A stretch of 64,000 bases of DNA. Source: Octopus vulgaris (taxonomy: Eukaryota). The stretch spans positions 68,634,001 to 68,698,000 of the forward strand of contig OX597828.1 of NCBI GenBank assembly GCA_951406725.2, read 5' to 3'. Below the pieces are notes generated by a model. That model saw nothing but the letters and a program-made list of their open reading frames with translations. It was not told the DNA's origin and ran no database searches. This document shows, one piece after another, positions 21,579 to 29,730 of this stretch; position 1 is the first letter of the stretch, and the number at the start of each line of letters is the position of its first letter. The translations under genes were made by a program, and so were the position numbers.

Positions 21579-22702
21579 CAGTCACAATGCTATTAATTAA
21601 ATGGCTAATCTAGAGTGATTAGATAGGACATTAATTAATTGTAGCGAATCATTCGGTTTATGCTGAGGATAATAGAGCTAAACATCTTAGTCAAGAGTCA
21701 CGTCTAAGAAGTTCGCTAATTTAGTGCTATTTCAAGAAAAAAAAGGTAGATAATAATTCTTAGAAACCATGGAGGTCCTTCTGGGTACTTCAACGGACGG
21801 TTGGGACATACTGTTGGCTGTGAGAATAGCATCATTCTTGTAAAACCCCCGGATATGCTAGGGAAGTGCTGGTTTATTTGAGAGAGAAGGAAAAGACCGA
21901 CTTGACCTTATCATTTGTCTGGCATTTCAACTAACACAAAGGAATGTGTCCTACATCCAAAGGAGACATTAAATCCACCACCGTAACAATAGTGCAAGCT
22001 ATCAAAGGGACTTTCATGTAGTCATTTCATTTGCTAAATATAGCAACCAAATTTCTCGCAAATCACATCTTACCAGTTCAAAAAACGAAAGATACAGAAG
22101 ATAATATAGTAATATATATAGAAAAAATATGGGATGGGCACGGATGGAAGACATTAATAATATGTTGCTTCGATCTAGTCTGATTTGGTGCTAAAAACAA
22201 CAAGAAACGTAGAGTTGAAAGACGACAAATACTACAATCATCACAACAGCACTGCCGCTGTTCCTGTTGCTGCTGATGGTGAAGGTGATGATGAAGGTAG
22301 TGATGATGATAATGACGATAATAGAAATATCAAACTGTTTTTAGAGATATTTGTTATTTTACGGAAGACTACATCTAAATGAAATCTGTGACAAAGTTTG
22401 TCAAGATCCGCCTCTTGTGTGAGGAAACACCCTCCATTCTCACATTAAGGTGGCGTTTGTGAACAGCAGCAGCAGCATCCATCGATGCCATTCGCACTGC
22501 CTCTCCATCTCATCCTTCACATATGCCTTAGTTCACCTCCTAAGGTGCTTGTTTTCATTCGTCATTTTTGTTTATATATTTTTCTTCCTGGCAGAAGGCG
22601 GTGCTCCAGAATGGCCGTAACCACGCAGCATAAAGCAAACTGAGTCTGTCTACTTATTTACCAGTTTATCGTTCTCTCCTCTGATTCTTTCTTTCTCTCA
22701 CG

Positions 22703-24265: not shown

Positions 24266-25071
24266 TAAAACTTAGATAAAACTTAGATATGTTTCGACCA
24301 GAGATTGGTCCAGGCCATGTCTAACTTAATAGCACCACCTGATAGGATTATTCGAATCCTGTTTAAGTCAAGTTTTGTTCAAGTAGTGAGTTCTTGTTGG
24401 GTGAGTTGTATCCAGTTTTGTTCAAGTAGTGAGTTCTTGTTGGGTGAGTTGTATCCAATTATGGGTGGCTTATCTGGTATTCTTTGAAGGAATCTATCCA
24501 GACTCTGTTTGAAGTTGATGGGATCCTTTTCCTCTTTGATCTCCCTCGGGACAATGTTAAATAGGGCAGGGCCTGTTGAGGAAAAGAAATTATGTTGCAG
24601 TGTACATGTATGTTGTGATCTTGAATTTGGCAGGGGACGTATAGCCCGTGGTCCAAGTCTCGGATGAACCTTGAAGCTAATGTTTAGGTCGTTTGGGCAA
24701 AGTTGGCGGTATATTTTCCACATCGTGCAAATGATGTACCGCTCACGGCGACGCTGGAGGGAGTAAAGTTTCAAGGCTTTAAGGCGATCCCAATAGTCGA
24801 GAGCAGCCATGCCTTCAATTTGTTTAGTGAGAGCCCTCTGGGGTGACTCAATTCTGGAGATGTTTTGTCTTGTGTGAGGAGACCACAGTGGGCAGCAGTA
24901 TTCAAGGTGTGGCCGTACAAAGGATGAAAAAAGTGGTATGATGACACCTTGTTTTCTGGACCGGAAAGTTCTTAAGATCCAGGAACTCATCCTACGAGCT
25001 GTATCGACCTTCTTGTTGATGTGTGCACTCCAACTGAGATCGTCATCAACAATTACACCCAGGTCTCTGGA
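24266..25071 (-). mobile_element. 5'-truncated CR1/L2-group LINE (RT C-terminus still in frame, 3' UTR, tail)
   Basis: RDLGVIVDDDLSWSAHI...VRPHLEYCCPLWSP...IESPQR..TK...DYWDRLKALKLYSLQRRRERY (ORF 24379-24990); 3' stem-loop GACCA-atctc-TGGTC and (ATCTAAGTTTT)2 tail; 43-bp tandem duplication at 24371-24456. Confidence 0.92.
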
Positions 25072-25199
25072 TATATAAAATTAATATTATTTGGACAAAT
25101 ACGCATAATTCGATGAGCGTGTTTAAATGTCGAGTAGAGCACCGGCACAATTTCAGCTACCTGTTGTCATTTTATATATTTATGTATTTACATCCATTG

Positions 25200-25310
<111 letters not shown>

Positions 25311-25737
25311 TGAGATCCCCCTTTTACTGAGATCCCCCTTTTAGTAGAAGGAATAGCTATATCTCTTTGACTGCTATTTCTAAATTCGGTGTGTTGGTGA
25401 GGCAATTCGTTGCTAAACCCTTAATTACTTAGTATTACTTAAATTTTCCTCGAATGGGGCTTTTACATACCGAAATCTACTTGGTGTAATTGATAATTAT
25501 CCCTAATTAATTAATTTCACCCTTTTATTATTACTGATAACCATATTTTATCCCAGTAAATTACCACAGCATTTTGTCTTGGCCGCACGCGGGTGGAAGG
25601 GGGCTGGTGACACAAACTTTCATTCAAACTTTGAATTTCGTGGTACTGGTCATGCTTTGGCTCGCTCTGACACTGAGTTGAGATGACGCATTCTAGTATC
25701 TCAAAATTTAATATACAATTATTCACAATTGTAGTAT

Positions 25738-25829
25738 CCTGCGCCGATGAGAGAAGAAGTCTGGGTAAAGTAGAATTTTCTAATTCTTATGATATCCTAA
25801 AACTTGATCTCGAAACGTACGTCCGTAGG
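25738..25829 (+). ncRNA. Type I hammerhead ribozyme, unit 1 (predicted cleavage after C25823)
   Basis: Stem I CCUGCG/CGUAGG; core CCGAUGA; 61-nt stem II GAGA..AAGU...AGAAUU-uucu-AAUUCU...ACUU..UCUC; GAAA; palindromic stem III ACGUACGU; GUC^ site. Confidence 0.85.
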
Positions 25830-26326
25830 TAACTTAAAATTGCATGATGGATTGCCGTCATTTCATTCTTTCTTTCTTACCTGTCTGTGTTTGCCTTTTA
25901 AGTGCTGTGTTTTTACTGAGATCCCCCTTTTAGTAGAAGGAATAGCTATATCTCTTTGACTGCTATTTCTAAATTCGGTGTGTTGGTGAGGCAATTCGTT
26001 GCTAAACCCTTAATTACTTAGTATTACTTAAATTTTCCTCGAATGGGGCTTTTACATACCGAAATCTACTTGGTGTAATTGATAATTATCCCTAATTAAT
26101 TAATTTCACCCTTTTATTATTACTGATAACCATATTTTATCCCAGTAAATTACCACAGCATTTTGTCTTGGCCGCACGCGGGTGGAAGGGGGCTGGTGAC
26201 ACAAACTTTCATTCAAACTTTGAATTTCGTGGTACTGGTCATGCTTTGGCTCGCTCTGACACTGAGTTGAGATGACGCATTCTAGTATCTCAAAATTTAA
26301 TATACAATTATTCACAATTGTAGTAT

Positions 26327-26418
26327 CCTGCGCCGATGAGAGAAGAAGTCTGGGTAAAGTAGAATTTTCTAATTCTTATGATATCCTAAAACTTGATCTC
26401 GAAACGTACGTCCGTAGG
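26327..26418 (+). ncRNA. Type I hammerhead ribozyme, unit 2 (predicted cleavage after C26412)
   Basis: Identical to unit 1, offset +589. Confidence 0.85.
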
Positions 26419-26915
26419 TAACTTAAAATTGCATGATGGATTGCCGTCATTTCATTCTTTCTTTCTTACCTGTCTGTGTTTGCCTTTTAAGTGCTGTGTT
26501 TTTACTGAGATCCCCCTTTTAGTAGAAGGAATAGCTATATCTCTTTGACTGCTATTTCTAAATTCGGTGTGTTGGTGAGGCAATTCGTTGCTAAACCCTT
26601 AATTACTTAGTATTACTTAAATTTTCCTCGAATGGGGCTTTTACATACCGAAATCTACTTGGTGTAATTGATAATTATCCCTAATTAATTAATTTCACCC
26701 TTTTATTATTACTGATAACCATATTTTATCCCAGTAAATTACCACAGCATTTTGTCTTGGCCGCACGCGGGTGGAAGGGGGCTGGTGACACAAACTTTCA
26801 TTCAAACTTTGAATTTCGTGGTACTGGTCATGCTTTGGCTCGCTCTGACACTGAGTTGAGATGACGCATTCTAGTATCTCAAAATTTAATATACAATTAT
26901 TCACAATTGTAGTAT

Positions 26916-27007
26916 CCTGCGCCGATGAGAGAAGAAGTCTGGGTAAAGTAGAATTTTCTAATTCTTATGATATCCTAAAACTTGATCTCGAAACGTACGT
27001 CCGTAGG
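26916..27007 (+). ncRNA. Type I hammerhead ribozyme, unit 3 (predicted cleavage after C27001)
   Basis: Identical to unit 1, offset +1178. Confidence 0.85.
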
Positions 27008-27504
27008 TAACTTAAAATTGCATGATGGATTGCCGTCATTTCATTCTTTCTTTCTTACCTGTCTGTGTTTGCCTTTTAAGTGCTGTGTTTTTACTGAGAT
27101 CCCCCTTTTAGTAGAAGGAATAGCTATATCTCTTTGACTGCTATTTCTAAATTCGGTGTGTTGGTGAGGCAATTCGTTGCTAAACCCTTAATTACTTAGT
27201 ATTACTTAAATTTTCCTCGAATGGGGCTTTTACATACCGAAATCTACTTGGTGTAATTGATAATTATCCCTAATTAATTAATTTCACCCTTTTATTATTA
27301 CTGATAACCATATTTTATCCCAGTAAATTACCACAGCATTTTGTCTTGGCCGCACGCGGGTGGAAGGGGGCTGGTGACACAAACTTTCATTCAAACTTTG
27401 AATTTCGTGGTACTGGTCATGCTTTGGCTCGCTCTGACACTGAGTTGAGATGACGCATTCTAGTATCTCAAAATTTAATATACAATTATTCACAATTGTA
27501 GTAT

Positions 27505-27596
27505 CCTGCGCCGATGAGAGAAGAAGTCTGGGTAAAGTAGAATTTTCTAATTCTTATGATATCCTAAAACTTGATCTCGAAACGTACGTCCGTAGG
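27505..27596 (+). ncRNA. Type I hammerhead ribozyme, unit 4 (predicted cleavage after C27590)
   Basis: Identical to unit 1, offset +1767. Confidence 0.85.
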
Positions 27597-27783
27597 TAAC
27601 TTAAAATTGCATGATGGATTGCCGTCATTTCATTCTTTCTTTCTTACCTGTCTGTGTTTGCCTTTTAAGTGCTGTGTTTTTACTGAGATCCCCCTTTTAG
27701 TAGAAGGAATAGCTATATCTCTTTGACTGCTATTTCTAAATTCGGTGTGTTGGTGAGGCAATTCGTTGCTAAACCCTTAATTA

Positions 27784-27841
<58 letters not shown>

Positions 27842-27937
27842 CATATATATATGTATATATTTATGTTTGTATATATATGTATATATGTTTGTATATATAT
27901 GTATATATGTATGTATATATATATGTATATATGTATG

Positions 27938-27972
<35 letters not shown>

Positions 27973-27999
27973 GTATGTATATATGCATCTATGTGTATG

Positions 28000-28040
<41 letters not shown>

Positions 28041-28176
28041 GATGTAAATACATAAATATATATATATGTATATGTATATATGTATGTGTATATATGTATA
28101 TATATGTATATGTATATATATGTATATATATAGATATATGTATACATATGTATATGTTAGCGTGAAAAACTATATG

Positions 28177-28310: not shown

Positions 28311-28954
28311 ACCGTAAAGTAAATTAAATTACATTAAATTAATGGTTACTCAAAATTCACTCTCAGTGCATTGTGCAAAATTACATTTATATGCATGTAG
28401 GTATCTCCATAGTTGTTCAGAAATACTATTAAGTATCTTCTCTTTAGTCCACAGAATAGACAAGGGATTCGTCGGAGCAGAGACAGCATCTCCTGGATAT
28501 TATATTGTATGGTTTTGCATACCTTACTGTCGACCAATTAATGTTGTACTTCGTTTTACCCCACTTCAGTCGCCATTTAAAATCTGTCAAAGATGTTGAA
28601 TATCTCTTATTGATTGACTTAAAGCTGTCAACATGGTTACGATAACGATTCGTAATGAATCAGTCGTCTGCCCAATGTAAACATAGGGACCTCACCTTGT
28701 GTGCGCAGTACATTTATATACAAGATTTGTACTCATACAGAGATTCATCAAAGGACATTTTGATTTATCTCTGCATGAGATAAATTTATCGTATTTATTT
28801 GTATATAAGGTAGACCCGACACCATTTATCGGCGTTGTTCTCGTGATAGCTGTACCATGAGTATTTGTACTACTACAAATTGGTCGATTAATTTACTAAG
28901 CCCAGTATTGTTACGTTTATTGATACGTTTTCTTAGCAGTAATCCTTAGACTAG

Positions 28955-29730
28955 AAACTCTATCAATGTAAAATTACTCCCGGTTCTGACATCTTTTTAT
29001 ATAGGTAGTTCTTCGTCTCATTTATCCAAAAAAATATCTAATCATTACTCTACATTGAGGCATATCAATAAACGTAACAATACTGGGCTTAGTAAATTAA
29101 TCTGGTATCTAAAAGATTATAATAGACAATTTAATTTGGAATGGAATATTCTCTCCATTTCATCACCTTATGACAAAGGTAAATCTTTTTGCTCCCTTTG
29201 TAATAGTGAAATATTTTTAATCCTATTCTTAAAGAATCCCCTTGTAAACACGTTTATCGTTGCAAACATTGGCAGAAATATACCTTTAGCTCATATAAGT
29301 GATTCTACCATTCTATAAAATTTGATCTTTGACTGTCTTCGACAATTTGCACTTTCACTAAATATATCTACTTCCATGCTTTTAAGCTTTACTCCAATTC
29401 ACCAATCGCTCTGCACCTCTCCACTACTAGTTTTCTGCTAATTTCTTTGTTTCTCCTCCGCCTCTTTCCAAATACTAACTTTGACGTTATATCAACTAAC
29501 GGTTTTTAAAAAAAAACAACTTAATAGCGTTCCCTTGATCACATGCGCAGTCATCACATTCTATTAAAATGTCTTATCGCTGCGTTTGGTTTCTTTCTTT
29601 CGCTGATGAGAAGACTGCATTGTTTTACACGATTTTACTCTTTCTGGAATAATACCAATGTTGTCTTCGAAGAAGTAAAAGAATATGAATAACACCTGCG
29701 TTTAACTCCATTTATCTTTTTATCTCTCTT
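28955..29730 (+). mobile_element. Penelope-like element 3' remnant (GIY-YIG endonuclease plus 3' region)
   Basis: YQCKIT / YIGSSSSHLSKKISNHYSTLRH...TGLSKLIWYLKD...EWNIL...PY...CSLCNSE...LVN / RCKH: Penelope GIY-YIG pattern with CxxC; decayed hammerhead at 29595-29683. Confidence 0.8.
29595..29683 (+). ncRNA. Degenerate hammerhead motif downstream of the GIY-YIG remnant
   Basis: CUGAUGA-GAAGAC-ug-CAUUG...CAAUG-uu-GUCUUC-GAAG: long stem II is intact, but GAAA and stem III are damaged. Confidence 0.45.

Follow-up and report, generated by a model that had tools for sequence, protein, structure and literature searches.

The retrozyme array in the window

The window, i.e. the whole 64-kb stretch of DNA that was analysed, carries a tandem insertion of a 589-bp unit between two TA-rich tracts (Table 1). 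The units are identical to each other, with a hammerhead ribozyme motif present four times at 589-bp spacing; a 17-bp duplication (25310-25326) opens the array, and its end lies at unit position 197, within the interval referred to below as site A. The unit is non-coding: its longest stop-to-stop frame amounts to 89 aa, on the minus strand, and it lacks a reverse transcriptase (RT) plus GIY-YIG frame, so that it is not an autonomous Penelope-like element. Local GC content is about 35% and the unit has no LTR structure. Since a tandem non-coding unit, a hammerhead in each unit, dispersed copies and a GC content below 50% fit the metazoan non-LTR retrozymes, the element is one of these, a new family of a known kind. 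Folded as a circle, the unit reaches -154 kcal/mol (z about -4.0, with about -1.0 for the minus strand; 40 shuffles). A combination of three variants is found in all four units, and is complete in 0 of the 43 other covering loci.

Table 1. Retrozyme insertion, its components and its target tracts (positions of the window)
Feature	Position	Strand	Basis or remark
(TA)n target tract, left flank	25200..25309	.	sequence
Retrozyme insertion, 4.2 head-to-tail copies of the 589-bp non-coding unit	25310..27787	+	repeat comparison
Outer stem I extension (AGU/ACU across a 2x2 loop; CAAUU/AAUUG)	25726..25842	+	aligned variants
Hammerhead copy 1, type I	25738..25829	+	stems, core CCGAUGA, stem II, GAAA and palindrome read from the sequence
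One unit, predicted cut to predicted cut	25824..26412	+	monomer that two cleavages would release
Site A, unit 185-212, mode 201 (87 ends exactly at 201)	26008..26035, first full unit	+	135/239 ends
Site B, unit 294-317	26117..26140, first full unit	+	79/239 ends
Hammerhead copy 2, identical	26327..26418	+	predicted cut after 26412
Hammerhead copy 3, identical	26916..27007	+	predicted cut after 27001
Hammerhead copy 4, identical	27505..27596	+	predicted cut after 27590
TA-rich target tract, right flank	27786..28155	.	sequence

Decayed Penelope-like fragments, 30-64% identical to the 778-aa Penelope protein described below, lie near the array and are not joined to it (28468-28656 and 21615-21848 on the minus strand, 28923-29258 on the plus strand); the Penelope protein found no match inside 25310-27787. 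A 233-aa open stretch just left of the TA tract (24382-25080, minus strand) presumably resembles the end of a LINE reverse transcriptase, and a Pfam scan of four flanking fragments, this one included, and of a fifth frame of the window gave nothing above cut-off. Furthermore, 28 bases of the left host flank (25173-25200) recur inverted in the right TA-rich tract (28035-28062), which suggests a fold-back event at the target. As regards expression, no RNA record carrying the unit was listed. Four runs of guessed RNA type contain contigs of the unit (with the hammerhead in three of the four), and other nearby repeats occur in them at far greater summed depth, so that no inference is drawn from these runs on expression, circles or editing.

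Architecture and predicted fold of the hammerhead

In copy 1, stem I pairs CCUGCG (25738-25743) with CGUAGG (25824-25829), including one G-U pair. It encloses the core residues C3 C4 G5 A6 U7 G8 A9 (25744-25750, C4 being at 25745), a stem II of exactly 61 nt (25751-25811), the GAAA segment (25812-25815), the palindrome ACGUACGU (25815-25822), which gives a 2-bp stem III closed by a GUAC loop, and C17 (25823), after which cleavage is predicted at a GUC triplet. A three-helix junction, an open stem I and an NUH triplet are thus all present, as in type I hammerheads; the consensus core CUGANGA...GAAA is departed from at position 4, where U is replaced by C, every other core position being in agreement. 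The initial annotation had read the same CCGAUGA core with U4C, a 61-nt stem II with four named helices, a 2-bp stem III around a self-complementary sequence and a stem I extended through an internal loop, all of which were found in place, the C of CAAUU lying at 25726, one base before the start that it had given (25727). The distal helix of stem II, AGAAUU/AAUUCU, is likewise present in the window copy, although one of its pairs is broken in 11 of 30 aligned variants, those of one U4 subfamily. Over the same 30 variants the inner part of the stem I extension is kept across subfamilies, and the outermost helix is weak, with 78% of cells paired. Internal loops of 2x2 are present in stem I and in stem II, in the latter 4 bp up; a tertiary contact between them (loop 1-loop 2) can be guessed at.

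Folding of the 115-nt motif exceeds that of shuffled sequences on the plus strand (z = -2.84, versus -0.76 on the minus strand), and stem II alone gives z = -2.45. The predicted minimum-energy fold of the motif is inactive, the core being paired with the palindrome, and C4 would add one C-G pair to this inactive fold. The proposed hammerhead structure is 93% paired across 30 chosen variants of the 589-bp family; RNAalifold, applied to 30 variants, recovered stem I and one helix of stem II and not the active fold, its consensus showing 0 double changes among its 17 pairs. A scan of the 64-kb window with Rfam gave 0 matches at gathering thresholds, and since long-stem U4C hammerheads were missed here, the number of hammerheads counted in animals may be too low.

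The family and its relatives in the genome

The genome searched comprises 2.8 Gb in 227 contigs. The hammerhead core pattern gave 835 matches, distributed on many contigs, whereas its reversed control gave 1; C4 is present in 381 of the 835. This excess and the strand-specific fold set the motif apart from chance, and the hammerhead identity proposed at the outset is supported. A wider pattern, which includes a 594-bp sister subfamily, gave 1,539 matches against 0 controls. The subfamilies of the 589-bp family are 85-99% alike. Two more distant families share unit positions of about 104-300 with it: a 555-bp retrozyme family (L123, G000:C2:149444638-149447863) with the A/B region, a U3-A8 core (UUGAUAA) and a 27-nt stem II, and another with a stem II of 54 nt.

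A third retrozyme family (L099, G000:C12:66977000-66986000) has a GUU triplet and a 3-nt loop III; the copy is joined at its site A, with no intervening TA, straight onto a 5'-truncated Penelope copy, and this junction may reflect either a template jump or a nested insertion. Elsewhere (G000:C9:96031182-96047730), a family-3 fragment lies within a larger tandem repeat of about 1.9 kb, in at least nine copies. A literature search found no cephalopod retrozyme and no animal retrozyme with U4C, and subscription papers and supplements may contain such cases.

The core variant at position 4

Rooted at the midpoint, a tree of 96 loci places every C4 copy in a single clade that is nested among U4 subfamilies; U4C arose once in the 589-bp family and has kept amplifying since, the direction of the change having been tested in this family only. 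Pairwise divergence is 0.7-1.1% in the successive C4 subfamilies; among those with U4, one sister stands at 0.6% and two older ones at 2.1% and 2.7%. When the seven positions of the 5' core were left free, the 100 matches listed comprised 73 with C4, 26 with U4 and 1 with A4, the other six positions being unchanged, so that among these matches position 4 is the only 5'-core position varying between subfamilies. With the 3' core left free, 85 of 99 family rows were unchanged and 4 had single changes.

The substitution is not restricted to this family. At least three further families, whose stems II measure 46-47, 75-78 and 86-92 nt, include subfamilies with C4, and C4 is also present in an autonomous Penelope element (59 of the first 100 listed of 969 matches); counting the latter, U4C recurs in at least four other families. 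Between the natural sister subfamilies, the predicted cost of the active fold is 3.7 kcal/mol for U4 and 4.4 for C4. Moreover, a viroid U4C variant has, according to a study cited in Perreault et al. (2011, PMC3088659), a much lower activity in vitro, and yet permits infection. On the basis of the recurrence among families, the predicted fold cost and the viroid precedent, C4 can be regarded as a tolerated variant, and probably a slower one; the combination of U4C with a long stem II in several unrelated repeats likewise points to a tolerated, probably slower design rather than to damage. The architecture had been called atypical, which holds for the core letter measured against the consensus, but U4C is a known viroid variant and is common, together with a long stem II, in this genome.

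No advantage of C4 is visible, since the U4 sister is equally young and a U4 subfamily has arrays of 3-4 junctions. The idea that C4 is merely the youngest lineage was rejected, one U4 sister being as young (0.6%). The idea that C4 gives longer arrays was also dropped: in the first set of loci at least three junctions occurred in 10/66 C4 and 0/39 U4 loci (p = 0.02), but that sample was enriched for exact matches, the fresh loci gave 2/56 for C4, and the 594-bp U4 subfamily has 3-4 junctions. In another U4 subfamily (L052, L062, L078, L193), A replaces G10.1 and breaks the first pair of stem II; this subfamily still kept spreading.

An improbable alternative is that the C4 ribozyme is effectively dead, uncut multimeric RNA moving via sites A and B with U4C as a neutral passenger. 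The considerable loss of in vitro activity in the viroid variant and the inactive predicted ground state agree with it. So do published observations, namely that hammerhead mutants leave Penelope insertion unimpaired in vitro, with no RNA ends at its cut site (PMC11167929, as far as its text was available), and that in one published test eight of nine frog retrozyme dimers were left uncut (bioRxiv 10.64898/2026.07.22.740005). It is opposed by the constancy of the remaining 5' core in the 100 matches listed and by the few single changes in the 3' core, although the youth of the C4 clade, in which little decay is to be expected yet, weakens this argument. It is further opposed by the recurrence of one and the same change in several families and by locus-private variants in all units of both arms (see below), which fit a unit-length circle, whose formation needs cutting.

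The long stem II

Patterns for stems II of about 63-93 nt gave 3,425 matches with U4 and 505 with C4, versus 10 controls each; with about 3,900 matches, long stems II are normal in this genome. In the basal part of stem II, one compensatory pair is found among the 30 variants (G-C in 13, A-U in 17), and the tip shifts in register and length (60, 61 and 70 nt) between subfamilies. The long stem is likely a scaffold, with its base under selection and its tip free to vary. Predicted uninterrupted helices measure 3-6 bp, and none exceeds 6 bp.

Dicer and ADAR usually require a helix of roughly 20 bp or more. The suggestion of the initial annotation that stem II could serve as a substrate of either enzyme, which would imply a regulatory small-RNA or editing role, is therefore not sustained by the short, loop-split helices predicted, nor by a tip that varies between subfamilies; it is most unlikely, even though the stem folds beyond shuffles and some other families of the genome have longer perfect helices. 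Docking of a protein on stem II possibly occurs, by analogy, and has a precedent in the Penelope hammerhead, which is reported to require the protein for cutting (PMC11167929, available text).

Insertion ends and the two-site rule

Ends were mapped in 105 loci and then in 60 fresh loci, in both cases the first listed by the searches and not a random draw; one row of the first set (L178) was dropped as an alignment artefact. In the 165 loci, a TA-type repeat adjoins the end of 239 of the 263 arms. The great majority of these ends (214 of 239) fall at two fixed sites, 135 at site A and 79 at site B, the remaining 25 lying elsewhere. Furthermore, the 70 loci with ends on both strands comprise 51 of the type A+B, none B+B, 1 A+A and 18 with another position; the single A+A locus consists of two copies of differing identity, facing each other. 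The marks of Penelope insertion, i.e. microsatellite target, partial tandem, inverted 5'-truncated arm and one-sided tail, are all seen in the 589-bp family. By the positions of these ends, site A would be the start of reverse transcription and site B a second start, and the segment of about 100 nt between them would correspond to a Penelope-type 'tail'.

These features agree with what is described for Penelope-like elements, which show a TA bias, partial tandems, an inverted 5'-truncated arm and a tail on one end (10.1101/2021.04.23.441226). According to the available text of the in vitro study (PMC11167929), the purified Penelope protein nicks AT-rich DNA and extends both strands, and its RT initiates within the RNA at two sites, which delimit the tail, uncut RNA being preferred. 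An ACCCU motif followed by a U/A-rich run precedes both end sites (26004-26012, unit 181-189, and 26106-26114, unit 283-291), and is also found in families 2 and 3; it is a candidate recognition signal.

At six loci, a variant absent from all other sampled loci occurs in every covering unit of both inverted arms. This pattern fits copying round one circle, and a homogeneous source array outside the sample would give the same pattern. Patterns of period 2 or 3 occur in three arrays, and a large number of variants are confined to one unit, so that part of the tandem structure may stem from DNA-level expansion or from multimeric templates.

The 5' ends give a weak hint at cutting in vivo. Directly after the predicted cut lie 6 of 168 ends (p = 0.026, a post hoc and weak enrichment, with two of the six from one locus), 3 of 94 in the fresh loci (p = 0.08-0.10) and 2 of the 3 arms of two 594-bp loci. 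A larger peak (18 of 94 fresh ends) is found at unit 360-389 (window 26183-26212), a G-rich segment that is likely a stop for the copying enzyme. Given that the enrichment after the cut is weak and was not confirmed in the fresh loci, and that the larger peak lies elsewhere, these ends were rejected as a proof of cleavage in vivo.

Monomer or dimer cleavage

The initial annotation had proposed that adjacent units pair through the palindrome, so that cleavage would depend on the tandem arrangement and the released monomer would be protected. The letters of loop III differ among families (GUAC, GUGC, AUAU, AUGU, AAUU, AGCU, GAUC) and its self-pairing is kept: the middle pair can form in 45 of 50 loci, from about seven families and hence not independent. 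Within the 589-bp family, GUAC to GUGC is the only change of loop III at the level of subfamilies (10 of 99 family rows, at 6 loci). As for predicted energies, to have both sites active costs 5.4 kcal/mol as a double hammerhead versus 8.8 as two monomers, and the palindrome gives -9.8 as a duplex versus +2.4 as a hairpin. One active monomer stands 4.4 kcal/mol above the ensemble, and in the circular monomer the predicted cost of the active site is also 4.4, i.e. it is not locked further. Dimeric Penelope hammerheads have reportedly been described by Luense et al.

The short palindromic stem III had been counted among the atypical features, but a helix III of 1-2 bp with a palindromic loop, cleavage as a dimer and a protected monomer constitute the canonical model for animal type I hammerheads (PMC4209133; review PMC6765202), and the usual invertebrate form is described as having a helix III of 2 bp with a tetraloop (PMC7229834). 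Double hammerheads have been published for newt, ASBVd, axolotl and Penelope (PMC7229834, PMC4209133, PMC6765202; available text in each case). An obligate double hammerhead, in which the monomer is unable to cut, units pair via ACGUACGU and the monomer or circle, once released, is protected, could draw on these precedents, on the self-pairing of loop III that survives changes of letters across families and on the energies predicted for dimer and palindrome duplex. Nevertheless, single retrozyme copies from coral (about 0.8 per minute) and mussel (about 0.1 per minute) cleave efficiently, and a 2-bp axolotl variant alone is 22% cut in one hour (PMC7229834). Moreover, one junction per arm was found in 70 of the 105 loci of the first set. 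Of the proposal, the double hammerhead stands as a possibility, and help of the dimer in cleavage is plausible from the energies predicted; a strict dependence on the tandem is doubtful, since the coral and mussel monomers cut alone and one active monomer costs just 4.4 kcal/mol. The wider setting, a dispersed retrozyme family that is likely mobilised by Penelope, was absent from the initial annotation.

Autonomous Penelope-like elements and the search for a partner

Protein, diverged-relative and motif searches, together with local alignments, revealed at least three families of coding Penelope elements, as well as two further families of retrozymes. [quoted passage not shown] The protein was identified through DKT, RT motifs and GIY-YIG, the marks of Penelope-like proteins; Pfam gave nothing above cut-off for it. 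The hammerhead in the terminal repeat of this element is of the U4C type and has a stem II of 55-56 nt and a ACAUAUGU loop (969 pattern matches). The end sites of the element lie at +52 and +204; its 21 two-ended loci comprise 20 A+B and 1 B+B (manual count). A very young Hydra-type Penelope family (L344, G000:C4:132437000-132446900), with an intact 727-aa frame and dozens of identical-scoring copies, shows the CxCx5C linker, and its hammerhead-like motif has a short stem II.

Neither protein nor diverged-relative nor local-alignment searches matched the 589-bp family with a partner. The ends of four Penelope-type or candidate families, a sample from a genome that contains more Penelope families, were no better than shuffles when compared with the A/B region (z -1.3 to 0.9).

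These data also bear on a further alternative, that an autonomous Penelope-like element has the unit as its terminal repeat, or that the unit is a satellite locally expanded from such an element, rather than an RNA moving on its own. The build of the hammerhead and the two-site rule match those of the autonomous element, higher-order periods occur in the three arrays mentioned above, and a preprint derives retrozymes from terminal repeats with local amplification (bioRxiv 10.64898/2026.07.22.740005, available text). However, no examined locus joins the unit to a coding body, Penelope fragments being near seven screened loci with no contiguity seen; from A or B onwards the arms consist of one unit after another, with several units in both arms of inverted insertions; and the four families tested are without similarity to it. 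This alternative is accordingly rated as highly improbable.

Proposed cycle and significance

The preferred reading, to which a probability of about 0.7 is given, is that of a young, protein-free 589-bp retrozyme, likely copied into TA microsatellites by a Penelope-like RT/GIY-YIG nuclease, with a U4C ribozyme that is likely slowed but working. The tandem locus would be transcribed, and hammerheads would cut some of the junctions, aided by the pairing of two palindromes and possibly by a protein; the unit-length RNA would then close into a circle, or an incompletely cut multimer would persist. The borrowed enzyme would nick both strands of a TA tract and start to copy from internal points of the RNA, site A serving one target strand and site B the other; copying would proceed through an intact hammerhead junction and continue for one to six turns. 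Since it begins 200-310 nt downstream of the cut and has to pass over it, the template needs a junction that is uncut or re-joined, whether cleavage depends on a dimer or not. A slow ribozyme would for this reason cost little, and may help.

A more elaborate scheme, of low probability, is that of gated hammerheads, in which the stem II of 45-90 nt serves as a docking site for the RT/nuclease of the element itself or for a host protein, two RNAs or two turns of one RNA are paired by the palindrome within a protein dimer, and U4C has been repeatedly selected to hold the ribozyme off until then. If this were so, copying from site A on one target strand and from site B on the other would be initiated by this one asymmetric complex, and thousands of long-armed core-variant hammerheads would be invisible to standard models.

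The role of hammerheads in Penelope-like elements and retrozymes is a question to which this family lends itself. Natural sister subfamilies differ in the ribozyme at little beyond position 4, both having spread recently, and the cost of slower cleavage is thereby directly measurable. The repeated fixation of one core change, while others are held, suggests that the fold matters and that top speed may not. Finally, the A+B rule provides hundreds of genomic records of Penelope-type priming on both strands from a protein-free RNA, and hence directly supports a route for which co-occurrence and homology have until now been the main arguments.

Comparison with known systems

What is of note here is the repeated occurrence of U4C with a long stem II in the Penelope system of this genome, the U4/C4 sister pair and the A+B rule. 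The element otherwise resembles the metazoan non-LTR retrozymes, as they are described in the available text of two sources (PMC7229834; Li, Clavereau and Pollet 2026, bioRxiv 10.64898/2026.07.22.740005): a non-coding tandem unit with one type I hammerhead each and low GC, dispersed as dimers to multimers, with a short palindromic helix III, strand-specific self-pairing and co-occurrence with Penelope-like elements. Its unit of 589 bp exceeds the 150-450 bp of Cervera and de la Pena (2020, PMC7229834) and falls inside the 51-972 bp of the 2026 preprint. It differs by the U4C core and by a stem II of 61 nt, versus about 4 bp plus loop in metazoan retrozymes, as well as by TA targeting, two fixed end sites and inverted arms, of which no description was found in the available text of the retrozyme papers (PMC7229834, preprint).

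The insertions, in turn, are like those of Hydra-clade Penelope-like elements (Craig et al. 2021, 10.1101/2021.04.23.441226), with (TA)n targets, partial tandems, an inverted 5'-truncated arm and a one-ended tail; the internal starts downstream of the hammerhead and the weak palindromic helix III are shared with the terminal-repeat hammerheads of Penelope (Frangieh et al. 2024, PMC11167929; Cervera and de la Pena 2014, PMC4209133; available text). In contrast to Penelope-like elements, the unit has no reading frame in its 589 bp, and its tail is of about 100 nt instead of 30-40. Furthermore, A is almost always paired with B in the insertions, whereas the in vitro start sites of Penelope are described as being without strand difference (PMC11167929, available text).

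As to the ribozyme itself, a short stem III, a self-complementary loop and a possible 8-bp inter-unit helix are common to newt satellite 2, ASBVd, axolotl retrozymes and the present family, in which stem III is of 2 bp and not 1 bp, closer to axolotl Amex2 and to the invertebrate forms that retain monomer activity. The viroid variant (PMC3088659, available text) has the same U4C substitution, which here characterises hundreds of genomic copies in one subfamily of an animal retroelement and turns up again in several families.
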